NCBI GenBank assembly: GCA_937907055.1
Contig: CALCTW010000072.1
Coordinates: forward strand, 1-20,889
DNA from: an uncultured Clostridia bacterium
GTDB taxonomy: Bacteria; Bacillota; Clostridia; Christensenellales; Aristaeellaceae
Direction of reading: 5' to 3'
Length of the DNA stretch: 20,889 bases
Below are positions 1,090 to 18,689 of the stretch, one piece after another (position 1 is the first letter of the stretch; each line of letters begins with the position of its first letter). The notes under the pieces are model-generated. The model was given only the letters and a program-made list of their open reading frames with translations. It was not told the origin of the DNA and ran no database searches. The translations under genes and the position numbers were made by a program.

Positions 1090-1788
1090 ATGAAGAAACT
1101 TTTATCCGTTTTACTCATCGCGCTCATCCTTGCCTCTGCCGGTGCCGTTGCCCAGGTCGAGCCGTATAACTGGCAGGATCAGATTGCTGTCGGTGACAAG
1201 GTGGATTGGCGTTCCATCCTGCAGTATTATCGCGATGATGATGATACGCGCCAGCTGATCTTTGTGAAATACACCGGCGGTTCCGAATGTGAGGTGCAGG
1301 TGTATATCAAGGATACTGCTCAGAATAACGCATGGACGAAGAGCCTGGTCTGCGCCGGTCTGGTCGGCCGAAACGGCGCGGGGCTGACTCATGAGGGCGG
1401 CGGAAGAACGCCGCTGGGTGTGTACGGCATCTCCACAGCCTTTGGCATCAAGGCTAATCCCGGCACCACAATGCCCTATATCGATGTCACACCCACCATT
1501 TATTGCTGTGATGAGGATACGGAGTACTACAACACCATCATCGATCTGAACGAAGTGGATCATGACTGCCACGGCGAATAGATGTTCAAATACAGCCCGG
1601 AATACAACTACGGCATGTTCATGGACTACAACGCAGAATGTACGCCCGGCAAGGGCAGCGCCATCTTCTTCCACTGCGACGGCGCGCGTGATTACACCGG
1701 CGGCTGCGTGGCCGTGAGCGAGGAAAACATGATATGGATCCTGCAAAATTGTGATTCCGGCGTAAAGGTTTGCGTGTTCAATAAGTAA
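1090..1788 (+). CDS. secreted YkuD-type L,D-transpeptidase family protein, one frame interrupted only by an in-frame TAG at 1579-1581
   Basis: A GAAGG RBS precedes ATG 1090. The signal peptide is MKKLLSVLLIALILASAGAVAQ. Under the standard code the gene splits into 1090-1581 and 1582-1788, which share one frame. The downstream piece carries the catalytic motif GKGSAIFFHCDGARDYTGGCVAVSEE (H...GC). It has no RBS and no signal peptide of its own. The final stop is TAA at 1786-1788. Confidence 0.8.
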
Positions 1789-2424: not shown

Positions 2425-4026
2425 ATGCGAACCGCACTTTTATTCAACTTCCTGATCGAAGCCACGATCATGGCTTCGATCGCGATCGTCCTGATGATGC
2501 TCCTGCGCAAGACGCTCCGCAATCCGCTTGGAAATAAGGCGATCTGCTTCGGCTGGCTGCTGATCGCGGCAAGATTGCTTCTGCCGATCAGCATTGTCAA
2601 TCCGTGGATCTCCTCCATCCGTTCGCCGTTTTCTTCGGATGCCGCCATTCGGCCCATCGCGGGGCAGATCGTTGTGCGCACACGCGATACGCTCTCCGGG
2701 GTCAGAGACCTGTTTTCTCAATCGGGAAATTCCGCGGGCACGGGCATGATGGATCGCGCCATCATGGAGATCGATTACGGCAATGCCGGGCTGATCCTGA
2801 TGCGCGTTTACCTGATCGGGATGGCGGCTGTACTCATATGGTTCATGATCCGCAATGTACAATTCCGATTGAAATTGCGCGCGGCCCTGATCGAGCCGGT
2901 TTCGGGAAAACTGCTGGAGCAGTACAGGGAAGTCTGCCTGCAAAGAGGTGTGAAGCCGATCCCGGTCATTTTCGCCGATCCTTTACCCAGTGCCTGCCTT
3001 GTCGGTGTGTTTCGTCCTTATATCGCGTTGCCGCTCACCGCTTCGCCAGCGGAGGTCATCCATGTGCTCACCCATGAGATCTGTCATCTGAAAAACAAAG
3101 ATCATCTTTGGAGCCTTCTGCGGTTGGCCTGCTGTGCGGTGCATTGGTTCAATCCTCTTGTCTGGATCGCGGCCGATATGAGCCGCACCGATACAGAGCT
3201 TCGCTGTGACGACCGCGTGGCGGCGCCGCTGAATGAGGAACAGCGAACGGCCTACGCCAATGTCCTTGTGCTTGCGGCGGCACGCCGAAGCGCGCCCGGT
3301 GTAGCGGTACTTGCGACCGGCATGACCATGACCGGCAAAAAGCTGAAGACACGTGTAATGACGGTCCTGCGCGGTGAACAAACGCACAGAGGGCTTGTTA
3401 TCGCGTTCTGCGTGCTGTCCACACTGTGTCTGATCTGCGCGTTCGCGACTTCTGAACTGCCGCTGCAGATCAGCAGACTGGGCACCACGGACGAAATGCC
3501 CCATTTTGTCACACAGGGCATGCAAGGCAATGTTCATCTGACAGACTCGGATGCCGCCGCGGCGTACGCGCTTGATCTGTGGCAGAATGTCCTCGGAGGG
3601 GCCGAGGCCGTTATCTCAGTAGATCCCTACGAAAATCGATATCAGGTACACGCGTTTGAAACTGATACCGCTGTGACATGGCAGATGCTCATGACCGATA
3701 CCGGGATCGTTGTCGATTATACGGCCTCATTCCCCGATCCGGACATCGCGAAGGACCTGAACGGGGAAAAACTGCAGGATCAGAAAAGCGAGATCAGTCA
3801 AGCCCGAGATTTCATGATGCCGCTCATTGAGCGTCTCGCCCCGGGGATCACCGGACGGATCTCCGAGATCTACAACGATTCCGTGACGGTCGTCGGCGAA
3901 GCGCATTATTTCTATTTTGTACTCAAACGCGCGGACGGGGATGAAAACAGCGCTTACGCGATCGTGCGCAAAGCGCCGGACAGCACCCTTCGCCTGATCT
4001 GGTTCTCAACGGAAGGGAACGGATGA
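2425..4026 (+). CDS. BlaR1-like M56-family membrane metalloprotease / signal transducer with a non-PBP extracellular C-terminal domain
   Basis: A GGAGG RBS precedes ATG 2425. The N-terminal part contains several hydrophobic TM segments and the HEXXH zinc motif in LTHEICHLKNKDH. After the last TM segment (VIAFCVLSTLCLICAFA) there is a ~190-aa domain. I could not recognise penicillin-binding SxxK or KTG motifs in it. The stop is TGA. Confidence 0.85.
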   Translation: MRTALLFNFLIEATIMASIAIVLMMLLRKTLRNPLGNKAICFGWLLIAARLLLPISIVNPWISSIRSPFSSDAAIRPIAGQIVVRTRDTLSGVRDLFSQSGNSAGTGMMDRAIMEIDYGNAGLILMRVYLIGMAAVLIWFMIRNVQFRLKLRAALIEPVSGKLLEQYREVCLQRGVKPIPVIFADPLPSACLVGVFRPYIALPLTASPAEVIHVLTHEICHLKNKDHLWSLLRLACCAVHWFNPLVWIAADMSRTDTELRCDDRVAAPLNEEQRTAYANVLVLAAARRSAPGVAVLATGMTMTGKKLKTRVMTVLRGEQTHRGLVIAFCVLSTLCLICAFATSELPLQISRLGTTDEMPHFVTQGMQGNVHLTDSDAAAAYALDLWQNVLGGAEAVISVDPYENRYQVHAFETDTAVTWQMLMTDTGIVVDYTASFPDPDIAKDLNGEKLQDQKSEISQARDFMMPLIERLAPGITGRISEIYNDSVTVVGEAHYFYFVLKRADGDENSAYAIVRKAPDSTLRLIWFSTEGNG

Positions 4027-4057
4027 CCGGATATCAGAATGTTCATACAGGAGAAAA

Positions 4058-5527
4058 ATGATGAAGAAATTTATATTTTGCGTTCTTATCCTATTGGCGG
4101 TCTTTCTGCCGGTCTGCGCGGTCTACGCGGAGGGCGGCTATATCGAGTTTATGCCGCAGGTCGTTGCGGATCAATTGGAAAAACTCGGTGTCCGCAAGGA
4201 AAACTATGAGGACATCGTGATCTTGGATCAGGTAGAAACCTCCGATTGCCGGTCTCATCTTTTTGTGCTGGCCGGTAATGACGGCACACATCACACCGTC
4301 TATCATTTCACCAACATCGAGACCGATGAAAACGCCTATCTTCACTGGGTATATCAGGCGTGCTATGATCAGCTGGCACCGCAGGGAGAAGGAACGGTTT
4401 GTTTTTACAGGCATGAGCATTATGACCGCTATGGTGAAAACGGAAATGTGCAGCTTTATGATGACCCCAATGGGTTCATGATCTATCGGATCGATCCCGA
4501 GGATCCCGAGACATATATTCAGGGCGTCAATGTGCATGTGATCGATCGGCAATTTCAGATCATGGCATGGTTTGACAAGAGCGTTTCCCCGGTCTGCAGC
4601 GCTTATATTCAGAATGGAAAGCTGCATTATGGTGATAACGAAACCGGAAAAAGCTATGGAACGGTGAAATTGTATCGTGTTTTTGATCTGAATGTCGCCT
4701 TCAGCAGTCTGCCCAAGACCTATCGGAAGGCTTCGGAGAAGTATACCGATCCTGCCGCGATCCCACACGGTGAACTTAAGGCGGAGCTGGTCAAATTCGT
4801 ATCAAACAAAAAGTACGCGGTTTATTCCGCACCGGATCAGAACTCGCTTCGGGCGGCCAAGGGAAAGGCTGTGGTTTCGACCAATGACTGGATCCAGGTA
4901 TTCGGTCGGGAGAAGGATTGGATCCTGATCCAATATGCCATCGATAAGGATCATTACCGCTTCGGCTATATTTCCGCCGACGCGCTACCCAAGAAAACCA
5001 CTGTGAAGCAGTTGGATCTTCGATATACAAGCGCGTATACGAAAGGCCGCGTATCGGTGACGGATGATCCTTTGTATTCCGGTGCTGAACTGGTCAGCCT
5101 GCCGGAAGGCAGCCGCGTGACATGGCTCGCGACGATGGGCGAATGGGCTTATATCGAGAGCAGTAACGGCGATCGGCTGCGCGGTTTTGTTCCGCTGTCC
5201 GCGCTTCGGACAGAACAGGTGTTTGAATTGCGGAACTATCCGGGTGAAAACGGCCCTGTGTATGACGGTGATCTGATCATCCGCGCCGATCAAACCTTCA
5301 GCGCGTCCTTCACGGTCGTGCAGTCCGGGCCGCTCGGTAATGCCGCTGTGTCCGCTGTGTTTTTGGTCGATCCTGAAGGGAACGCACTGGGGACAGCCGC
5401 GTTCGATGCGCGTGAGAACGATTTCTTTTGTACCGGTGTGATCGATGATTCCGTTACTGTCATCCGCTTCGTTGCCGTCAATGCGGACGGTGATCCGCTG
5501 GATCATTCCGTTTCTGTACAATGGTAA
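4058..5527 (+). CDS. secreted protein with two C-terminal SH3b-like repeats; N-terminal domain unknown
   Basis: A GGAGA RBS precedes the start. The signal peptide is MMKKFIFCVLILLAVFLPVCAVYA. SH3b-like segments include YAVYSAPDQNSLRAAKGKAVVSTNDWIQVFGREKDWILIQY...GYISADAL and RVSVTDDPLYSGAELVSLPEGSRVTWLATMGEWAYIESSNGDRLRGFVPLSAL. The stop is TAA. Confidence 0.75.
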   Translation: MMKKFIFCVLILLAVFLPVCAVYAEGGYIEFMPQVVADQLEKLGVRKENYEDIVILDQVETSDCRSHLFVLAGNDGTHHTVYHFTNIETDENAYLHWVYQACYDQLAPQGEGTVCFYRHEHYDRYGENGNVQLYDDPNGFMIYRIDPEDPETYIQGVNVHVIDRQFQIMAWFDKSVSPVCSAYIQNGKLHYGDNETGKSYGTVKLYRVFDLNVAFSSLPKTYRKASEKYTDPAAIPHGELKAELVKFVSNKKYAVYSAPDQNSLRAAKGKAVVSTNDWIQVFGREKDWILIQYAIDKDHYRFGYISADALPKKTTVKQLDLRYTSAYTKGRVSVTDDPLYSGAELVSLPEGSRVTWLATMGEWAYIESSNGDRLRGFVPLSALRTEQVFELRNYPGENGPVYDGDLIIRADQTFSASFTVVQSGPLGNAAVSAVFLVDPEGNALGTAAFDARENDFFCTGVIDDSVTVIRFVAVNADGDPLDHSVSVQW

Positions 5528-5563
5528 CAGAAATATGGACTTTGTTGCGACAAGGAGGTATCT

Positions 5564-7324: not shown

Positions 7325-7795
7325 ATGCAGAAAGACCAACGACAGCATTTCGCAAACTGGCAGCATCTTTATGATCAGTACGCGACCGATATCCTTCGGA
7401 CCTGTTATCTGCTTTTGAAGGATAAGGACGCGGCGGAGATCGCTGTACAGGAAACTTTCATTCAGATCGGATGCGGAAGCGGATATCTGGCACCGGGAAA
7501 CATGATCAGCGAAAAGGCCTGCCTTCTGCAGATCGCGATGGATCATTGCCGGGGATTATCGGGAAAATCAACGAGCGGATCCCCGGATCTGTATAAAACC
7601 GTCAGTCATGGCGGCGAAGAAGAGCGCCTGCTCAGAGGGATCGTCGGGCTGGATGATAAGCTTCGGCAGACCACTTTGCTTTTCTATTATCAGCAGCTGA
7701 CCATGCGTGAAGTCGCTTACGTGCAGCGCTCCTCGGTGTGGCTCGTAAAGCTTCGCCTCTTTCAGGCGGTCAGGCAATTGCGTATGCTTGCCTGA
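7325..7795 (+). CDS. small sigma-70 family (ECF-like) RNA polymerase sigma factor
   Basis: An AGAGGAG RBS precedes the start. A region-2-like segment is LYDQYATDILRTCYLLLKDKDAAEIAVQETFIQ. A region-4 helix-turn-helix-like segment is LRQTTLLFYYQQLTMREVAYVQRSSVWLVKLRLFQAVRQL. The stop is TGA. Confidence 0.7.
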   Translation: MQKDQRQHFANWQHLYDQYATDILRTCYLLLKDKDAAEIAVQETFIQIGCGSGYLAPGNMISEKACLLQIAMDHCRGLSGKSTSGSPDLYKTVSHGGEEERLLRGIVGLDDKLRQTTLLFYYQQLTMREVAYVQRSSVWLVKLRLFQAVRQLRMLA

Positions 7796-7893: not shown

Positions 7894-9558
7894 ATGAAAA
7901 AGTTGATAATGAAGAAACCGATGATAAAAGAAAAAATGATCTTGCTGCTTGGGCTTCTGCTCCTGTTATTGCCGTTCACAGCCGCAGCAGAATCGAAAAA
8001 GGAGTGGGAATTGACGTGTGATGCCAAACTGGCGGAAAACACGACGATCTATGCGATCGATATCGCGGCGGATGGCACAAAATCGGCGCGGGCGATCGGT
8101 TCTCTTCCGGCGGGTACCTATTTTCGGGTCAACAGCAAAGGGTTTGATGAAGAACTGCAGCTGAAGATGATCCGTTACTATCAGAATGGCGAGCAGAGCG
8201 CTTATATGGCGCGTTCCGCTCCGATCGCCAGTGCTTCCAAGATCATCTGGTTTACAGACGGCACGATGACACATCTTCCGGAAAATGTTGTGGCGGATCC
8301 GGCTGAGTTGCGTTCCTGGCTGAATACCACCTGCCCCGGGCATACGGTTTACGCCATTTCCAATGTCGGACAGGCCAGTCCACTTGAATTTCCTCAGACC
8401 TTTGACGGCACACAGACGACAATTCTCACCTCAGATCAGGCTGCCGCTGTGAATCCGGGCGGAACGCCGCGTCCGTACACCGGCGGCACCGCGAAGGATC
8501 CTTCTGTCAACACATCCGGCTATGTGGAAGGGGAGTGGAACATCAGCACAGAAATCTCTGCTGAAGAACAGGCCTTCAATGCGTCTTGTCCTCATCGCCT
8601 GAAGCGTACGGTCTGGGGCTATTCCGATGCGCATATGACGAGCAAATACGAGAAGATCAATATCGGCACCTATGTGAATATCATGACTGATTTCAACGAT
8701 GTCGTGAAGATCGCCTATTATAAAAACGGTGTGCGCCATACCGCATATGTTGAACGCGTGGATCTTCTGGGGGCTTATACGCAGTATGTTGATCGTCAGG
8801 GAAACGCGCAGACAGTCTATACCGGAGATCCCGATTATGAGGCCATTCTTTCCGGCTGTGAGGTGACCTTTCAGGCAGAGTCCATCACTCAGGGGTTGGA
8901 CACACTGGTGGCAGAAGAGCAGAACAGGAAAAACACGCCTGCCAAAGCTTCTGCTGAATCGAACGGAGCTGCCCATGCTTCGCAGGAGGCCGCAAGCACG
9001 GCATCCGGGAGCGAAGGTGAAAAAGTGGTCGTGAGCAGAGTCGGGGTCTCCACCACAATGATCGCGTATCAGGGTGAAACGATGGAAGTGCGCACCGCGC
9101 AACTTACCTTCAGCAAAAATGTGCCTTCATAGCATAAGGTGGCGGTCATCTACGCGCCTAAAACAGGAAAATGCACATTGCGAAAGAGCGCGTCCACCTC
9201 GTCCGCTGCATTGAAGAAGTGTAAGGCCGGTACGGTCGTCATCGTACTGGAACAGGGCGATAAAACCTGTAAGATCAATGTGAACGGCACCACTGGCTAT
9301 GTGCTGACCTCCTGTCTCAGATTTTATGACGCGAATACGCCCCTTTTGGGGGATGGCCAATTGTCCTATAATGGCAAAACAACGGGAAGAACTACCGTCA
9401 ATGTGCGCAATACACCGGAAAAGGGCAGTGCTGTCATCGGTGATTGGAAAACCGGCACGCAGGTGCAGGTCTTTTCACATGAAAATGGCTGGTATGAGAT
9501 CGAGTATCAGGGTATGCATGGCTATGTTCAGGAAAAATACCTGAATTTTGAGGAATAA
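7894..9558 (+). CDS. secreted multi-SH3b-repeat protein, one frame interrupted only by an in-frame TAG at 9130-9132
   Basis: The signal peptide region is MKKLIMKKPMIKEKMILLLGLLLLLLPFTAAA. Under the standard code the gene splits into 7894-9132 and 9139-9558, which share one frame. The downstream piece (HKVAVIYAPKTGKCTLRKSASTSSAALKKCKAGTVVIVLEQGD... and TVNVRNTPEKGSAVIGDWKTGTQVQVFSHENGWYEIEYQGMHGYVQEKYL) is two classic SH3b repeats. It has no ATG, no spaced RBS and no signal peptide. The final stop is TAA at 9556-9558. Confidence 0.78.
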
Positions 9559-10819: not shown

Positions 10820-10985
10820 CTGTTTTAACAATTTTGTAACATATCAAGCTGAATTTGTCCCCTGTAAACCGGACACGGGAAAGCATCTAAATCGCAGATA
10901 CCGGATGTTATCTCCCGGTTCGTCAGCATGCGACCTGATCGGATCAGTACACTTTGGCATCTGTGTGCATAACGATCAGCTTACC

Positions 10986-11354
10986 CTATGAACCGTCCTC
11001 GTTCCTTATGCCTCCTTCGATCCGTAATCTGTATTCGCCGTTCACGATACCGCTTATCCCGCTTGCAGCCGCGTTTCCGACAAATTGAAGATCGTCCCAT
11101 GTGCAGACTGTGATCCATGATCCGTACACGCGCTTTTGCAGCATGATCCGAATAAAGCTGCCCGTCTGTTTCTGGTCATAGGGCACGATCAAACCGTAAA
11201 TGATAGCATTGAAGTCGCGCAGATCCATATATCCGATGCATTTGTACAGACTATCATAAACGGGATGCTTTTCTGACACTTCACAAAGAACGTTTACGTT
11301 GATCGAAGACATGAGCAGCAGGATCAATAAGAATATCGCAATGATCTTTTTCAT
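10986..11354 (-). CDS. small secreted protein of unknown function (ends at TAG; in-frame extension possible to 10944)
   Basis: An AAGGAG RBS lies 7 nt before ATG (11354-11352). The signal peptide is MKKIIAIFLLILLLMSSINVNVLC. The ORF stops at TAG (10988-10986). Reading through adds GKLIVMHTDAKVY and then TGA at 10946-10944. Confidence 0.6.
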   Translation of the reverse strand: MKKIIAIFLLILLLMSSINVNVLCEVSEKHPVYDSLYKCIGYMDLRDFNAIIYGLIVPYDQKQTGSFIRIMLQKRVYGSWITVCTWDDLQFVGNAAASGISGIVNGEYRLRIEGGIRNEDGS

Positions 11355-11365
11355 AACCAAGCTCC

Positions 11366-12130
11366 TTATTCTTCTGAAACGATGTGGTGAACACTCTGCG
11401 CGATCTGAATGGCGTTTTCAAGATCAATCGGGGATGATACGACAAACCATTTATCATCAACACTCCAGATGATCGTGAACATATTGAATGTGCCCTCTTT
11501 TATTTCGCATTCCTTCTCGATCACAAAAGCCGGATTGCCATTCAGGGTCATATTTGACAGTTGTGCTTCTTTTATGTCTATCAGAAGGTGCGTGTTATCG
11601 TCACATTCATCATAGGAAACGAAACCGGAATTGTCGTTGGAAAAGAGCATTACATTTTTCCCGGTTTCTGATACCCATATCCTATCATATTCCGCCGGTG
11701 TGAAGGCCGGATAGTATTCACCTTTGTAACCTGAGGGCACAGTGAAAACATCGGTAGGTTCAAGGTGAATATTGGCGTAGCCGGAATCAAGACTCATCAC
11801 CAGATTCATGATACTGCTGCGGATATAAGGGTTGCTTGCAACAGCCACAGGTACACCGATGAGGATCCCCATCAGCAGAACGATGATAACCGACATGGTT
11901 TTAACAAGGCGGCTCGTATGTGCGCTGTTTATTCTGTCTGTGTCCGGAGAACGTTTGTCCGAAGCCCGTTTCATCTTCAACCATTGTTGATGCGTGAACT
12001 GAATGGGGGTGATCTCTTCGGCTGTTTCTGTATCCTCGTCCGGGGGTTCGGCTTCATTGATCAGCGACAGACGGATCAATTCGTCCCAAAGCTGATCTTC
12101 TGAATAATCTATTGTTCTTCTTTTGATCAT
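11366..12130 (-). CDS. single-pass membrane protein, DUF4367-like putative anti-sigma factor
   Basis: The start ATG overlaps the stop of the upstream sigma gene (ATGA at 12130-12127). The layout is a cytoplasmic N-terminal region, one TM segment (MSVIIVLLMGILIGVPVAVA), then an extracytoplasmic domain. This is the usual arrangement of Clostridial sigma/anti-sigma pairs. The stop is TAA. Confidence 0.65.
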   Translation of the reverse strand: MIKRRTIDYSEDQLWDELIRLSLINEAEPPDEDTETAEEITPIQFTHQQWLKMKRASDKRSPDTDRINSAHTSRLVKTMSVIIVLLMGILIGVPVAVASNPYIRSSIMNLVMSLDSGYANIHLEPTDVFTVPSGYKGEYYPAFTPAEYDRIWVSETGKNVMLFSNDNSGFVSYDECDDNTHLLIDIKEAQLSNMTLNGNPAFVIEKECEIKEGTFNMFTIIWSVDDKWFVVSSPIDLENAIQIAQSVHHIVSEE

Positions 12131-12687
12131 TCCGCGTCAACCTCCTCCTGTATTTTGATTTGAATCAGCTTCCGTGCGCGTCTGATATATTGATTGATAC
12201 TGTTCGGTGAAAGGCCTGTTCGCTTTGCGATCTCTCGATTGCTCATTCCCAGGATCAGCTTCATACGAAATATCATTTTCATGCTGTCGGGCAAAGCCTG
12301 AACAGCATGCTGCACGTGATTTATCAGTTGCTTGTTTTCAAACACTTCCATCGTGCTGACAGAAGTTTCGTTTAACTGCAATTCTTCCACATTGATGACT
12401 GTCTTTAACTTTCCGCGCTGGGTATGCATGGCGATGGTATCAAGTGAAGTGTTTTTGACAGTTGTCAGTATGTATTGCTTCAAACTTTTTGCAGGCAGTT
12501 TCTTTAATTGATCAATGCGCCTGAATAACCGGACGCAGCTTTCTGAAACAGCATCCTATTCCAAACAATACGCACCGGCATATTTTCTTGCGATCTTCAG
12601 CATGTCGGATCCGTATGTTTCGTATAATTGTTCCATATACAGAATGCTTTCATCATCCTGTGCAGGATCTAAAAACAGCAGTATCAT
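12127..12687 (-). CDS. sigma-70 family (ECF-like) sigma factor, one frame interrupted only by an in-frame TAG at 12558-12556
   Basis: The standard-code ORF 12127-12483 encodes only regions 3/4 (LPDSMKMIFRMKLILGMSNREIAKRTGLSPNSINQYIRRARKLI) and begins at a TTG. The same frame continues upstream: MILLFLDPAQDDESILYMEQLYETYGSDMLKIARKYAGAYCLE[TAG]DAVSESCVRLFRRIDQLKKLPAKSLKQYILTTVKN. This supplies region 2. ATG is at 12687-12685, with AAGGAG 12 nt upstream. The stop is TGA. Confidence 0.72.
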
Positions 12688-12945
12688 TGCCGGGTGTTAC
12701 TCCTTTCGGTAACAAGGTTATCCCTATTCACTATTATATACGATTCTCGTATCAGATCTGTGACTTGTTGGATCGCATTATGTAAAATTTCAGGGAAACT
12801 GTCACATTTCCATGGCAGAATAAGTATAATAGATGAGAACAGCAGTAATTGCATCTTGAAAGGAGGGATTGTGAATCCGATCCTGCTGAAGTTCTCATAC
12901 GAAAACCGCTTGACTTGTAAAATAGCGGAGAGAAGAGGAGAATAC

Positions 12946-13512
12946 ATGAAAAAGGGTGTATTTGGAATTGTAGTTCTTTGTTTGTTGACAATATGTTCAT
13001 TTGCTTATGCGGATTGCAGTGTTTGTGGTGGTAACAACAAAACAACTGTTAATCGTCCGACAAAATGGATTGATGATATTGTTTTTGATACTCATACTCA
13101 ATATTATGTGGTTGACTCTTATTGCGCAGATTGCGGAAATTTTTTAGAAAGCACAACGAAAGAGTACAGAGATAGATCATATGCGCATATTTGGAGTATT
13201 GAATGTATTAACATTACATATCACAATGATACCAACTATCATTGGAAGGAGGGAAAACGGATTAAGCGATGTGAAGCATGCAATAAAATGATTACACTTG
13301 ACGAAAATGTGATCTATGATTCATAGTCTCACTATATGTCATCTTCTTATTTTGAAGATGCAGGGCATATTGGTGCACGACATTACTATGTAGTTATCTG
13401 TGGTAATGTGCATTGCAGTCGTTACTATACGATTTCTATTCCGTGTAAAGGCGGTTCTACACATGTCGCACCACTGTCTGTTGATCCAAATCCCAATACT
13501 GATATACAGTGA
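12946..13512 (+). CDS. small secreted Cys-rich (CxxC-repeat) protein, one frame interrupted only by an in-frame TAG at 13324-13326
   Basis: An AGAGGAG RBS lies 5 nt before ATG 12946. The signal peptide is MKKGVFGIVVLCLLTICSFAYA. Motifs are CSVC, CADC and CEAC before the TAG. After it, 61 more sense codons (62 codons counting the TGA stop) repeat the same theme (HYYVVICGNVHCSRYY versus the earlier QYYVVDSYCADCGN). The stop is TGA at 13510-13512. Confidence 0.68.
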
Positions 13513-13533
13513 TGTATGAAAGAGGTGTCGAAA

Positions 13534-14181
13534 GTGAAAAGGCATGTCGTTTTCTTACTGTGCTTGCTTTATCTTTTTTTGCTTGGCACAGCATTTGCGG
13601 ATCCTGTACCTGCCGATGATGCGCTTGAAAAATAGTTGCGTTATATTGCGGAGATATGGATGGGGGACATCATACCGGAGGAATAGTGCTTTACCGAGAC
13701 TACGGTAAAAGATGAACAGGGGAATACACTTGATGTCGAAGCATATTTATGTTAGGACAAAGACGAAACTACAGGTCAGGAGTATCTTCTGTTTGCGAAA
13801 ATATAGGAAAACAAGACCTCACTGCTCAGAATTTACTTGAACCATCAGAGAATCGAACCTGAGGTGGATGAGACTGCGGCAATTGATGCAGAAACCGCGG
13901 CGAGGCTTTTTTTGCGGATATGCGAACAGAATGAAGCCTTTGGTAACAGAGGTGATATGACACATGAACAATTCTTAAAAGAATGCGATTGCGAACTCTT
14001 TTCACCGGAACAAATGCGGTATACAGATCAGTCATTATGGACAAGCGTCCTGAAAGTTAACGGAACAGAAGGCAGCACGATTGTGGAACTTCTGTGGGAT
14101 GCATCAACGATGAGCATCGAACGTGTTATGTTGATGACAGAATCCCCGGATTCGTTTGCTTTCATACACTTAATGAGGTAA
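13534..14181 (+). CDS. small secreted protein of unknown function whose frame contains four in-frame TAG codons
   Basis: An AAGAGG RBS lies 8 nt before GTG 13534; an in-frame ATG at 13516 is an alternative start. The signal peptide is KRHVVFLLCLLYLFLLGTAFA. The frame is a 215-codon frame plus its TAA stop, with no internal TAA or TGA in AT-rich DNA. TAG codons are at 13633, 13684, 13753 and 13804. The standard-code ORF track shows only 13837-14181. The stop is TAA at 14179-14181. Confidence 0.65.
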
Positions 14182-14298
14182 ATGTGAAGGAACACGAAAT
14201 ATACGATCGACAGATATTGCGTTTGACAGCAATGAGGTTTGAAGTACACATATCTGAATCCGGATTCTCTTGCTTTGAGAGGAAGCCTGTATATTCGT

Positions 14299-14342
14299 AA
14301 AAAACCGAGCCCCCGATGCCGTCTGTTCGGCGTCGGGGGCTC
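14299..14342 (-). terminator. rho-independent terminator of the SulP gene
   Basis: On the minus strand, GAGCCCCCGACGCCG-aacaga-CGGCATCGGGGGCTC is followed by GGTTTTTT. Confidence 0.85.
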
Positions 14343-14363
14343 GTGCTGATCACATATGGATCT

Positions 14364-16067
14364 TCAGTTTTTATCATCCTGCGCGGCGAGGATCGCTTCG
14401 GCACGGGTGAAGGCGGCATCGATATTGGGGCAGAAGTTTTCCGCGCCCACTTCCTCACGGAAGCCGTACTTGACCATGGTCAGCATGGGCTGCTCGTTTA
14501 CGTGAGAGAGCACCAGCGTGATCCCGGCCTTCTTGCACTGCTCCTGCAGGTTCTGCAGCGCGATCATGGCGGTCACATCCAGCGAGGGCACGGCGCGCAT
14601 ACGCAGGATCAGCACCTTGGTCACATCACGGGTGGTGATCTGGTTCAGTCTGTCGGAAACGCCGAAGAACAGCGGGCCGCTGATCTCATACACGCGCACA
14701 GCCTGCGGCACGTCGCGCAGCTCCTTGCCGTTTTCATCGGTCTTTTCGTCATAGTGCCAGTTCTTTACGCTGAATTCGCTGGTCAGATGCTTCACCAGCA
14801 GCACCAGCGCGGCCACCAGGCCCACCTCGATGGCGACCACCAGGTCAAATACCACCGTCAGGATGAAGGTGATCACCAGCACCAGAATATCGGCCAGAGG
14901 AGCCTTCTTTACGATCCTGACCACGGTACGCCAGCCGCTCATGTTATAGGCCACCTGGAACAGGATGGCGGCAATGACCGGCATGGGGATCATGGCAGCA
15001 TAGGGGATGAGCAGCAGCAGCACCAGCACCAGCACCAGCGCGTGCACGATACCGGCAATGGGGGTGCGGCCGCCGTTCTTGATGTTGGCCGCGGTACGGG
15101 CGATGGCGCCGGTGGCGGGGATACCGCCGAACAGCGCGCTGCCCATGTTGCCGATACCCTGCGCGATCAGCTCCTGATTGGGGTTGTGCTTGGCGCCGAT
15201 CATGCCGTCAGCCACCACGCAGCTCAGCAGGCTCTCAATGGCCGCCAGCACCGCGATGGTCAGACCGTCGCTGAACTCGGCGCTGATCATATCAAAGGAC
15301 AGGGCAGGGAAGTGGAAGGCGGGCAGACCGGGCTCAATGGTGTACAGGTCGCCGATCGTCTTGACAGGCAGACCGGCCAGCTTGACCACCAGAATACCGG
15401 CCACGACCGCGATCAGGGAGCCCGGGATCGGGATCTTCTTGCAGATCTTCGGCCAGAAAATGAGGATCAGCAGCGCGAACACGCCCACCGCGACAGCCCA
15501 CAGATTGATGGAGCCGATGTTTTTAAAGAAGACCACCAGCTTTTCCACGGTCTCCACAGGCTTTTCGGCATAGGTGACACCGAAGAAATCCTTAAACTGA
15601 CCGATCAGGATGGTCACGGCGATACCGGCGGTGAAACCGGTGGTGATCGTGAACGGGATGAACTTGATCAGCGAACCCACGCGGCAGAGGCCCATAATGA
15701 TCAGCAGCACACCGGCGATGATGGTGGCAATGATCAGACCGTTCATGCCGTTCCGGGCGATGATCCCGGCTACGATGGTGGCAAACGCGGCGGTCGGACC
15801 GGCGATCTGCACCTTGCTGCCGCCGAAGAAGGCAATCAGGAAGCCCGCGACGATGGCAGTGTAGATACCCTCCTGCGGGCCCACACCGCTGGCCAGCGCC
15901 AGCGCGATGGAAAGCGGCAGCGCGATGATCGCGACGATGATGCCGCTGATGATGTCCCGGGAGAGCTGCTTGCCGTTATAGCCCTTCATGCTCAGGAACA
16001 GCTCCGGAATCAGGGGCTGCTTCTTCTCACCGGAAGTCTTGGTCTTTTTCTTGTTCAGGATGCTCAT
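14364..16067 (-). CDS. SulP-family inorganic anion (sulfate/bicarbonate-type) transporter with a C-terminal STAS domain
   Basis: The long ORF has many TM segments and SulP-like sequence (GIIVAIIALPLSIALALASG, GGSKVQIAGPTAAFA). The STAS-like C-terminus is VRVYEISGPLFFGVSDRL...VLILRMRAVPSLDVTAMIALQNL. I chose the start ATG at 16067-16065 (MSILNKKK...) because a GAGGGG RBS precedes it. The ORF track start at 16154 has none. The stop is TGA. Confidence 0.9.
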   Translation of the reverse strand: MSILNKKKTKTSGEKKQPLIPELFLSMKGYNGKQLSRDIISGIIVAIIALPLSIALALASGVGPQEGIYTAIVAGFLIAFFGGSKVQIAGPTAAFATIVAGIIARNGMNGLIIATIIAGVLLIIMGLCRVGSLIKFIPFTITTGFTAGIAVTILIGQFKDFFGVTYAEKPVETVEKLVVFFKNIGSINLWAVAVGVFALLILIFWPKICKKIPIPGSLIAVVAGILVVKLAGLPVKTIGDLYTIEPGLPAFHFPALSFDMISAEFSDGLTIAVLAAIESLLSCVVADGMIGAKHNPNQELIAQGIGNMGSALFGGIPATGAIARTAANIKNGGRTPIAGIVHALVLVLVLLLLIPYAAMIPMPVIAAILFQVAYNMSGWRTVVRIVKKAPLADILVLVITFILTVVFDLVVAIEVGLVAALVLLVKHLTSEFSVKNWHYDEKTDENGKELRDVPQAVRVYEISGPLFFGVSDRLNQITTRDVTKVLILRMRAVPSLDVTAMIALQNLQEQCKKAGITLVLSHVNEQPMLTMVKYGFREEVGAENFCPNIDAAFTRAEAILAAQDDKN

Positions 16068-16125
16068 GGTGTACCCCTCAGTGTATACACGATTCACGCG
16101 CGTACGCACGCGCGCGGCGTCCGTT

Positions 16126-16154
16126 ATTATAGCACCAAGCTTTCCCTCAAACAA
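16126..16154 (-). promoter_or_regulatory. candidate extended -10 promoter for the SulP gene
   Basis: The minus strand reads TTGTTT, a 17-nt spacer, then TGcTATAAT (TATAAT = 16131-16126). Confidence 0.45.
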
Positions 16155-16664
16155 TCACACAATTCTGGTCATTTTTTCGCCATATCCGTGGTTCTCCGGG
16201 CGCGTTTTCCTGCCGGGATCCTGATCCCTTTTCGTCGCGTCGGTTGCTTCAGCGTATCCCGGATCGCGCGTCATGCAGCGTTGCTCTGATCAGCGGCGGT
16301 TTGAGGATAGGAATGATCCTTTCAATCGATTCCGTGCCGCCGCAGACCTTGACCTTATTCTGATGATGATAAACGGAGTATCCCGGTACCGCGTGAGATC
16401 GCACATCGTCATCGGCACGTCCTTGCCCGCGCGTTGCTCCCGGTGAAGATCTTTTCATCCGGCCGCGGATCGCTTTACCCGGAAGCATCTGTTCTTCACG
16501 ATCATGGGGGAGGTCTCGTGCTCCCCATTCCGTTCACCTCCGTTTACCCACCTCCCAGATCCATGCTGTATACCGCGGCCGATTGATCCGGCTGTTTTCT
16601 GTGATCCTGTATGCGCTTTTTCCCGGATTTTCAGGGCTTTTGCGTGCTGATAAATGAACTCTTC

Positions 16665-16754: not shown

Positions 16755-16831
<77 letters not shown>

Positions 16832-16834
16832 TAT

Positions 16835-16911
16835 GGCTCCGTAGCTCAGCTGGCTAGAGCATTCGGTTCATACCCGGAGTGTCATCTGTTCGAATCAGAT
16901 CGGAGCCACCA
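16835..16911 (+). tRNA. elongator tRNA-Met (anticodon CAU), CCA encoded; lysidine-modified tRNA-Ile2 not formally excluded
   Basis: The cloverleaf has acceptor GGCTCCG/CGGAGCC, D-arm GCTC-AGCTGGCTA-GAGC, anticodon stem TTCGG/CCGGA with loop TTCATAC, and T-arm ATCTG-TTCGAAT-CAGAT. Confidence 0.85.
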
Positions 16912-16914
16912 TTT

Positions 16915-16987
16915 GGGGCATTAGCGCAGTTGGTAGCGCACAACACTGGCAGTGTTGGGGTCAGGAGTTCGAATCTCCTATGCTCCA
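16915..16987 (+). tRNA. tRNA-Ala (anticodon GGC), no encoded CCA
   Basis: The cloverleaf has acceptor GGGGCAT/ATGCTCC containing the G3:U70 alanine identity pair. The anticodon stem is CAACA/TGTTG with loop CTGGCAG, and the T-arm is AGGAG-TTCGAAT-CTCCT. The discriminator A is followed by TAA. Confidence 0.92.
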
Positions 16988-16992
16988 TAAGC

Positions 16993-17118: not shown

Positions 17119-17898
17119 GTGAGGACGAAATACCCTATCGTGCTTGTGCATGGACTTGGCATGAAAAGCCTGCCTTTTCTGCGCGCTTTCGGCCGTATTG
17201 ACCGCATACTGCGAATCCAAGGATATACGGTTTATGTGAGCCGCATTGACGCTATGGGCTCTGTCGAAACGAACGCACAGAAGTTAAAAGAAGAGATTGA
17301 TTCCATCCTTCTTGAAACCGGCTCCAAAAAAGTCAACATCATCGCTCATTCCAAGGGCGGACTTGACGCGAAGTATATGATGAGCGCGCTTGGAATGATG
17401 GAGCATGTCGCATCCTTTACCACGCTTTGTACGCCTCATGCCGGTTCTCCCATCGCTTCGTTCGTACTTCGCTTTCCAGACATACTGCTTCGTTACGCAG
17501 CTTTCTGGGTCAACTTCGCCTATCGTATTTTAGGCGACAAGCATCCCGACTGCTTGGCAGCGTGCCGTCAGCTTCGCCGGGTTTCGGGCAATGAAAAAAC
17601 GGAATTGCAGGGCGTGTTTTGCCAAAGCTTCTCTTCTGCCATTTCTGAGAAGGAGAAGCATTTTGACTTCGTGATGGGAATTCCCGCGTTTTTGTCACGC
17701 ATGATTGAGAAGAATTCTCTTACGGACGGACTCGTTCCGCGCGATTCCGCCGTCTTCGGGCAATACCGTGGCGATTGTATCGACGGTTCGGTCAGTCATA
17801 CGGAAATCATCGACTTCATGGTGCGCGACAAATACCGGGATCGCGTATTTACATTTTATTCCACTCTCTGCGAAGAACTGTCAAAGATGGGATATTAG
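17119..17898 (+). CDS. alpha/beta-hydrolase, lipase/esterase-like (GxSxG-type nucleophile elbow AHSKGG)
   Basis: An AAGGAG RBS precedes GTG 17119. The N-terminus YPIVLVHGLGMKS (oxyanion-hole type) and IIAHSKGGLDAKY are typical of small bacterial lipases. The ORF ends at TAG 17896-17898. Here TAG looks like a genuine stop (see findings). Confidence 0.75.
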   Translation: MRTKYPIVLVHGLGMKSLPFLRAFGRIDRILRIQGYTVYVSRIDAMGSVETNAQKLKEEIDSILLETGSKKVNIIAHSKGGLDAKYMMSALGMMEHVASFTTLCTPHAGSPIASFVLRFPDILLRYAAFWVNFAYRILGDKHPDCLAACRQLRRVSGNEKTELQGVFCQSFSSAISEKEKHFDFVMGIPAFLSRMIEKNSLTDGLVPRDSAVFGQYRGDCIDGSVSHTEIIDFMVRDKYRDRVFTFYSTLCEELSKMGY

Positions 17899-17975: not shown

Positions 17976-18689
17976 TTATTCCGTCTCCGCCATCCGGTAG
18001 CCCACGCCGACTTCCGTAAAAATATACATCGGTTCGTCCGAATTAGGCTCAATTTTCCGGCGGATATTCGCCATGTGTACGCGCAGTATTTTGTTGTCGC
18101 TGCTGGCATACGGACCCCAGAGCTCACGCATGATAAATTTATAGGTGAGAACTTTTCCAGCGTGCTCGCCGAGCAGCGCGACAATTTTGTATTCGTTCGG
18201 CGTCAGATTGACATCTTTGCCGCTGACGAACACACGGTGCTTCCGATAGTCAATTTCCATGTCGCCCACCTTGTACACACCCTGAAGCGCCACCGTGTCG
18301 TTTTCCATGGACGTGCGCGTATGGCGCAGTGCCGCGCGGATGCGCGCAAGCATTTCAATGGTACCGAAAGGCTTTGTAAGATAATCGTCCGCGCCCAAGT
18401 CCAGCGCTTTCGCTTTATCCTCCTCCATCGAACGCGCGGATATGACGATGATGGGCGTTTTCGTCCATTTCCGAACGCTTTGGATAATCTCGTTCCCATC
18501 CATGTCGGGCAAGCCAAGATCCAGAAGAATACAGTCCGGACAATGCGATGATATCATTTGAAGCGCCTTTTCGCCCGCGTCGGTAACGACCACGTCAAAA
18601 CGATTGGCGACAAGCATCGCTTTCAGGAATTTTGCAATTCCAGCGTCATCCTCCACAATCAATACCTTCAAAGGACATTCAGCCATCAT
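17976..18689 (-). CDS. OmpR/PhoB-family response regulator, KdpE-like
   Basis: The receiver domain is KVLIVEDDAGIAKFL...ILLDLGLPDMDG...PIIVISARSMEEDKAKALDLGADDYLTKPF. The winged-helix output is LTPNEYKIVALLGEHAGKVLTYKFIMRELWGP...LRVHMANIRRKIE. The start ATG(ATG) at 18689/18686 overlaps the kinase stop. The ORF-track N-terminal extension to 18779 was rejected. The stop is TAA. Confidence 0.88.
   Translation of the reverse strand: MMAECPLKVLIVEDDAGIAKFLKAMLVANRFDVVVTDAGEKALQMISSHCPDCILLDLGLPDMDGNEIIQSVRKWTKTPIIVISARSMEEDKAKALDLGADDYLTKPFGTIEMLARIRAALRHTRTSMENDTVALQGVYKVGDMEIDYRKHRVFVSGKDVNLTPNEYKIVALLGEHAGKVLTYKFIMRELWGPYASSDNKILRVHMANIRRKIEPNSDEPMYIFTEVGVGYRMAETE

Follow-up and report, generated by a model that had tools for sequence, protein, structure and literature searches.

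An ECF-type sigma factor gene with an in-frame TAG, and the likely translation of UAG, most probably as glutamate, in a human-gut Clostridia species

Introduction

The window analysed here, a stretch of 20,889 nucleotides from an uncultured human-gut Clostridia bacterium (contig CALCTW010000072.1 of assembly GCA_937907055.1), carries on its reverse strand a gene for an extracytoplasmic function (ECF)-type sigma factor (12127..12687) with a single in-frame TAG at 12556..12558. Comparison of this gene with its homologues, with other genes of the species and with other strains makes it likely that UAG is translated in this species, most probably as glutamate, and that the sigma factor gene is intact. 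We further consider it probable, with less assurance, that UAG is a glutamate codon of the species, which would be the first reassignment of UAG to a standard amino acid on a bacterial chromosome and the first use of UAG for glutamate outside eukaryotes. The pattern of in-frame TAGs is beyond chance. The window holds nine of them in six genes, a tenth lies outside the window in pepP, and none of the 39 genes examined in this species is interrupted by TAA, TGA or a frameshift. In the literature to mid-2026 no report was found of a bacterial code with UAG as glutamate, or of any bacterial reassignment of UAG; reassigned UAG is described there in phages (Gln), archaea (Pyl) and eukaryotes only, and the bacterial cases concern UGA only.

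A complete sigma factor read across one TAG

Read in one frame, the sigma factor gene runs for 186 codons from an ATG at 12687 to a TGA at 12127 and meets one TAG, at codon 44, just as a preliminary description of this DNA had proposed. Under the standard code, what is left is the open reading frame (ORF) 12483-12127, which opens with TTG and encodes 118 amino acids. This ORF is real, but its content is not the regions 3 and 4 that the same description had assigned to it: it starts in the last part of region 2 and continues through a linker into region 4, and it cannot hold region 3, since ECF sigma factors are without that region. A search for a ribosome-binding site before the TTG at 12483 found none. 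An AAAGGAG ribosome-binding site can be read from the sequence at 12700..12706 on the reverse strand, ending 12 nucleotides upstream of the ATG at 12687. Farther upstream, a consensus scan picks out a promoter-like site, GTGACA-17-CATAAT, at 12777..12805 on the same strand (10/12 matches), to which little weight can be given; such sites near the sigma factor gene are no commoner than in shuffled sequence.

The product read through the TAG, with X at that position, has the domains of a whole sigma factor. The preliminary description had suggested a comparison with the Sigma70_r2 and Sigma70_r4_2 models, and both are matched. The Pfam Sigma70_r2 match (PF04542; 33.2 bits against a cut-off of 24) covers residues 21-86 and profile positions 1-66 of 71, and thus runs across the TAG, while Sigma70_r4_2 (PF08281, the helix-turn-helix of the sigma4 domain) is found at residues 125-174 with 51.4 bits. 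The NCBIfam model for sigma70-ECF factors, TIGR02937, extends over residues 19-178 (positions 4-164 of 165) with 80.2 bits, the cut-off being 42.9. When 1.84 billion cluster representatives were scanned in full with HMMER, 4,266 homologues were recovered. The top ones are 180-190 amino acids long, their starts correspond to the ATG at 12687, and each aligns without a break across the TAG, from about residue 2-17 to about residue 180. An AlphaFold model built with 41 homologues as input has a mean predicted local distance difference test score (pLDDT) of 89.2, and its best Foldseek matches in the PDB are all ECF sigma factors, namely SigE (1or7), SigL, AlgU, SigW and SigH, over 165-180 columns. 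The architecture of the 186-residue product is the two-domain form, sigma2-sigma4, without regions 1.1 and 3. By hidden Markov models, full-length homologues and predicted fold, the read-through ORF is a complete ECF-type sigma factor, for which binding to RNA polymerase is a prediction. If UAG is a rare glutamate codon here, it follows that the gene is intact; given a UAG read as sense, our best reading is that it should be annotated as such.

The residue at the TAG codons

The preliminary description placed the TAG immediately before a D-A-V-x-E motif of regions 2.1/2.2. The TAG does lie at this motif, but it does not precede the conserved segment: codon 44 is itself the conserved acidic residue. 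At this column the 147 homologues have E in 99 cases (67%) and D in 32 (22%), followed by S, Q and K with 3 each, within a motif at the border of regions 2.1 and 2.2 that can be written x-[E/D]-D-[IVA]-V-[SQ]-[DE]. The description named no residue for the TAG. Very probably it is glutamate, judging from this column and three others: four TAG columns could be aligned, and Glu is found in 4/4.

The second column belongs to a gene for a YkuD-type L,D-transpeptidase (1090..1788, forward strand; TAG 1579-1581), where the corresponding residue is E in the 90%-identical proteins P0276/P0282 (codon GAG in locus L173) and the codon is GAA in the 80%-identical L084. The copy with GAG, L173 1949-2647, comes from samples of the same studies and stands in a different context, with TraX, Lgt and a 1,858-residue protein. 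Two genes of L173 end in TAG, with a second stop 1 and 3 codons on, and the copy may be a paralogue of the same organism or may belong to a sister species. The third column is a GAG/TAG polymorphism within the species, in blaR1. Codon 115 of that gene is GAG (Glu) in the window (2767..2769, forward strand) and in three other strains, and TAG in L168 (GCA_045628485.1).

The fourth column comes from the aminopeptidase P gene pepP (M24B), which lies about 9 kb left of the window on contig k141_137555 (L166 910-2178, the same as L176 10286-11554) and has its TAG precisely at the metal-ligand Glu of the RIEDD motif. There, GIGFRL-TAG-DNLLVTEDGCENLS aligns with GIRIEDDILVTKDGHENLS of 3ig4 and with GIGIRIEDDIVITETGNENLT of E. 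coli PepP, and the peptide across the TAG, if the codon is read as E, would be GIGFRL[E]DNLLVTEDGCENLSAAIPR. Counting along chain 1a16 identifies the matching residue of E. coli PepP as E406, and in 3ig4 the match is the equivalent residue. We take E406 to be one metal ligand of the enzyme. Beyond the TAG, PepP has 31 conserved residues, and the C-terminal metal ligand lies at or after the TAG.

TAG-bearing genes and their conservation among strains

Besides the sigma factor and YkuD genes, four genes of the window carry in-frame TAGs. One encodes a secreted protein with two C-terminal SH3_3 domains (7894..9558, forward strand; TAG 9130-9132), both of which come after the TAG. In the YkuD protein, likewise, the Pfam YkuD match is on the C-terminal piece, and the catalytic His/Cys motif is downstream of the TAG. 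The small secreted protein p124 (10944..11354, reverse strand) has its TAG at 10986-10988, 13 codons ahead of a TAA. The remaining two genes encode p210, a strain-specific, Cys-rich secreted protein with a signal peptide and a GC content of 0.36 (12943..13512, forward strand; TAG 13324-13326), and the secreted protein sec4 (13516..14181, forward strand), which has four TAGs, at 13633, 13684, 13753 and 13804. Homology continues across the TAG in the sigma factor, YkuD, the SH3 protein, PepP and the BlaR1 of L168, and three more TAG-bearing genes belong to no family.

Exact-protein look-ups and cluster listings identified the window, which we read as chromosomal, as an entire contig present in both NCBI and ENA, and they turned up several independent assemblies of the species. 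Among these are GCA_045628485.1 (L168) and the 65.7-kb ENA contig k141_137555 (L166, L176, L180), with contigs in ENA ERZ272471xx. The in-frame TAGs are identical in independent Logan, ENA and NCBI assemblies from several studies, which rules out sequencing or assembly error. Each TAG is kept wherever its gene occurs: in 4 assemblies for the sigma factor, 8 for YkuD, 5 for the SH3 protein and 3 for sec4. Both L001 and L002 have all four TAGs of sec4, in a frame that is intact although the signal peptide has diverged, and the TAG and tail of p124 are kept in L001, L166 and L167. The same TAG ends each of the six PepP variants, and likewise each of the six variants found for the N-terminal piece of the SH3 protein. 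The preliminary description had allowed that relatives of the sigma factor might show its N-terminal part degraded by other stops or indels; in L001, L002 and L003 the TAG and the frame are preserved. No TAG-free sigma factor of >50% identity was found among the 1.84 billion cluster representatives, and a word-index search of 5.8 billion clusters returned only the 118-residue fragment. Database entries for the TAG-bearing genes are fragments in every case. A homologue of 33% identity from another metagenome (L165 401-1070) looks quite different from the TAG cases, with a frameshift near the same region and no TAG; it is a genuine pseudogene or else an error of assembly at low coverage.

Substitutions between strains tell how the parts behind the TAGs evolve. 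BlaR1 of L168 differs from that of the window at 12% of nucleotides, and its frame stays open for 419 codons past the TAG. Over these codons there are 81 synonymous and 42 non-synonymous changes, with a ratio of non-synonymous to synonymous rates (dN/dS) of 0.14, against 0.11 upstream. Past the TAG of the SH3 protein there are 4 synonymous and 1 non-synonymous substitutions, and for the sigma factor, compared with L001, 6 and 2. These counts indicate that purifying selection acts on the regions after the TAGs, which are hence very probably translated.

Stop codon usage

Of the 39 complete genes available for the species, with 12,933 codons in all, 23 end in TGA, 15 in TAA and 1 in TAG. Among the stops that close long ORFs in 80 loci from related Clostridia, the share of TAG is 14%. 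The 10 internal TAGs amount to 0.08% of the 12,933 codons and, if TAG is Glu, to about 1% of Glu codons. A reassignment, if there is one, would appear to be at an early stage, with a codon this rare (~0.08%) and one gene still ending in TAG. The nearest relatives in GTDB and metagenomes, identified by PpdK (93%) and LexA (75%), have no in-frame TAG pattern, and some genes of the PpdK relatives terminate in TAG, so relatives this distant do not show the trait. A VanW search of the GTDB r232 species representatives gave no match. A crude count of stop-joined ORF pairs was too noisy and was not used.

Decoding of UAG

Glutamate at UAG would call for a dedicated tRNA that has the anticodon CUA and is charged with Glu, and release factor 1 (RF1) would be lost or weakened. 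Possible decoders are a tRNA-Glu that arose by duplication, or a tRNA that a non-discriminating glutamyl-tRNA synthetase (GluRS) charges and that escapes transamidation. The gene for RF1, prfA, is not on the species contigs read. Termination at UAG could be abolished or merely out-competed. At codon 44 of the sigma factor, the UAG would provide the conserved acidic residue with which the region 2.2 helix begins.

A signal in the mRNA has less in its favour. No common +4 base follows the in-frame TAGs, and no shared 3' structure was found after them (fold z-scores from -1.5 to +0.4 in 9/10 contexts, with p210 an outlier at -2.95); this lack of shared 3' context or structure favours a mechanism at the level of the tRNA over a cis element. 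A preference for A before the TAG (8/9) disappears once the bias of the window toward ATAG is allowed for. In the whole window, both strands, tetranucleotides ending in TAG number 100 for ATAG, 42 for GTAG, 19 for TTAG and 6 for CTAG; ATAG thus accounts for 60% of all TAG trinucleotides, which explains the apparent preference. Frameshifting or hopping at the TAG is ruled out, as the downstream frame is frame 0 and there are no matching take-off and landing codons. A split gene with re-initiation is ruled out as well by the missing ribosome-binding site at the TTG at 12483, and the C-terminal piece of YkuD would have no signal peptide.

Alternative explanations

Several observations weigh against the translation of UAG as glutamate. 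Only four TAG columns can be aligned. The sequence of the species that was read, roughly 42 kb, contains no tRNA with anticodon CUA, the tRNAs being Met, Met and Ala(GGC) only, and none was found in the other loci fetched. The TAGs are also unevenly spread: six accessory genes with some 1,500 codons have nine, and the remaining genes of the window, with some 4,400 codons, have none, which suggests costly or inefficient decoding. Finally, one gene, for a family-I lipase (17119-17898), has a TAG (17896..17898, forward strand) at its natural stop, the only such case, at the usual C-terminal position of lipases and with no back-up stop for 129 codons. Read-through would add these 129 codons antisense to a genuine response-regulator gene (17976-18674), with which the lipase gene converges, and would cross three more TAGs. 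The 77-nucleotide gap between the two genes was searched for a terminator-like hairpin, and none was found. The lipase region is not common to the other strain; it may therefore be a recent import, or there may be residual termination at UAG, and the lipase TAG may fit either one.

These points bear on the possibility that UAG is only partly suppressed, which is a serious one even if we think it doubtful. RF1 would then be kept and a suppressor tRNA would compete with it, each TAG would cut the full-length yield, and TAG would still end some genes. The sigma factor, its coupled anti-sigma factor and the secreted proteins of the island around them (described below) would be made at a reduced or suppressor-set level. 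Partial suppression would suit the very low frequency of the codon, the lipase TAG without a back-up stop, and the clustering of in-frame TAGs in accessory and envelope genes, none being present in the genes for elongation factor G (EF-G), GroEL, PpdK, FtsZ or SulP. It sits less well with just one gene in 39 ending in TAG, in a lipase region that is strain-variable and could be imported, and with sec4, whose four TAGs would each reduce the yield further. That core enzymes can carry a TAG as well is shown by PepP, in which it is at a catalytic residue and fixed in the species.

It is improbable that the suppressor is non-chromosomal or non-constitutive, for example carried by a prophage or mobile element, so that the TAG-bearing genes would be read to the end in some states only. 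There is good documentation of suppressor tRNAs encoded by phages (Borges et al., 10.1101/2021.08.26.457843), and six of the nine TAGs in the window lie in a 2.9-kb strain-variable island of low GC content. Yet two core genes, pepP and ykuD, have TAGs that are fixed in all strains sampled, the alignments give Glu instead of the Gln of the phage code, and the island proteins have no relative in IMG/VR, phage or plasmid collections.

Still less probable is another meaning of UAG, either pyrrolysine, in what would be a bacterial parallel to the archaeal Code 34, or glutamine, as in the phage code 15. These are the two meanings of UAG known in prokaryotes and their viruses (10.1101/2024.09.30.615893; PMC9523058). 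The aligned columns, however, have E or E/D, and at the two well-populated ones Gln (3/147 and 1/117) and Lys (3/147 and 0/117) each reach 2% at most. The codon that alternates with TAG within the species is GAG, and the position in PepP, that of a metal-binding carboxylate, argues against both Gln and Lys/Pyl. For pyrrolysine in particular, no pyl gene and no methylamine methyltransferase gene was found in the ~42 kb read.

That the TAG-bearing genes, the sigma factor gene among them, are nonsense pseudogenes or their TAGs assembly errors deserves almost no credence and is contradicted by the present data: the standard code does truncate each such gene and GAG turns into TAG by one transversion, but ten of ten disruptions are TAG, with none a TAA, TGA or frameshift, they recur identically in independent assemblies of several studies, the regions downstream are under purifying selection, all four alignable sites go back to Glu even though TAG can be reached in one step from eight sense codons, and the frameshifted sigma homologue of L165 looks quite different.

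Genomic context of the sigma factor gene

Downstream of the sigma factor gene lies a putative anti-sigma factor gene (11366..12130, reverse strand), whose start overlaps the sigma stop codon in an ATGA. It had been described beforehand as an intact, translationally coupled anti-sigma gene; the overlap bears out the coupling, and the label holds as a probable one, since no anti-sigma domain model was matched in the Pfam and NCBIfam scans. The protein has a cytoplasmic N-terminus and a single membrane segment and matches Pfam DUF4367 with 29.9 bits, and dN/dS between strains is below 1. From its position, the ATGA overlap, the single-pass topology and DUF4367, the partner encoded at 12130-11366 is probably an anti-sigma factor. 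Translation of the sigma factor would thus be coupled, through the overlap, to that of a membrane-anchored partner.

Together with p210 and sec4, this pair makes up the strain-variable low-GC island of 2.9 kb (11315..14254), with the six in-frame TAGs mentioned above. Its GC content is 0.36-0.45, against 0.50-0.60 elsewhere, and it is missing from L166, L167 and L180 of the same species. The p210 gene sits as an insertion, relative to L001 and L002, between a shared leader and ribosome-binding site and sec4, and the signal-peptide region of sec4 was replaced together with it. A second strain-variable insertion, compared with the 65.7-kb contig, is found at 4042-5534 of the window and holds the gene for a secreted protein of 489 residues.

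Another ECF sigma factor gene, uninterrupted, is present at 7325-7795, directly upstream of the TAG-bearing SH3 protein gene, with no obvious anti-sigma gene between them. The longest ORF of the window (14316-16289, forward strand, 657 codons) is a shadow ORF, and the real gene on the opposite strand (14364-16154, reverse strand) encodes a SulP/DauA-type transporter, matched by NCBIfam with 489 bits. A tRNA cluster, Met(CAT)-Met(CAT)-Ala(GGC), at 16755-16988, adjoins the SulP gene in the other strain too, but the genes beyond it differ completely from one strain to the other.

Relation to known systems

Several systems resemble the one proposed here in part. In genetic code 15, found in crAss-like, Lak and other gut phages, TAG is read as Gln by a phage suppressor tRNA. 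Likenesses include the gut habitat, in-frame TAGs in ordinary genes, and a codon that is rare and unevenly spread. In contrast, the TAGs of this species are on a bacterial chromosome with groEL, the EF-G gene, ftsZ, ppdK, lexA and mutY, the aligned columns have Glu, and neither a suppressor tRNA in the ~42 kb read nor a match in IMG/VR or the phage collection was seen. In the archaeal Genetic Code 34, all TAG codons mean pyrrolysine; the code needs the Pyl machinery and has proteomic proof (Kivenson et al., 10.1101/2024.09.30.615893). It shares with our case a prokaryotic host, internal TAGs in many unrelated genes, little termination at TAG and a coding density that is not lowered under table 11. 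Unlike Code 34, the present case is bacterial, its columns point to a standard amino acid, Glu, and no pyl genes occur in the ~42 kb read.

UAG does mean glutamate in certain eukaryotes. In the Blastocrithidia nonstop and peritrich ciliate nuclear codes, UAR is Glu (PMC12153298), and Blastocrithidia also keeps a stop codon with a dual role. Those codes, however, involve changes in eRF1 and reassign UAA too, whereas UAA is a normal stop here (15/39 genes). Among bacteria, codes 4 and 25 read UGA as Trp or Gly in Mycoplasmatota, some endosymbionts, Absconditabacteria/Gracilibacteria and Eggerthellaceae (PMC13462651). They resemble our case as stop codon reassignments at the level of a bacterial lineage; as a rule, the release factor that reads the codon has been lost there and a cognate tRNA gained. 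They differ in the codon, UGA being read by RF2, and in occurring mostly in reduced or AT-rich genomes, whereas the genome here has a GC content of ~52-56% and is not obviously reduced.

The sigma factor itself can be compared with ECF (group 4) sigma factors that are co-transcribed with an anti-sigma factor. It has in common with them the sigma2-sigma4 form of ~186 residues, the adjacent single-pass partner and the start/stop overlap. The differences are the TAG in region 2, a partner with DUF4367 and no recognised anti-sigma domain, and the location of the pair, on a small island that varies among strains and also encodes secreted proteins without a known function.

Implications

Should UAG prove to be a glutamate codon of this species, a free-living gut bacterium of normal GC content would be a natural example of an early or ambiguous stage of codon capture. 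This stage would be directly testable, through the decoding tRNA, the synthetase that charges it and the fate of RF1. The reassignment would also account for the pieces, labelled hypothetical, into which standard pipelines break such genes, and it would bear on infection of this bacterium by phages that recode TAG.
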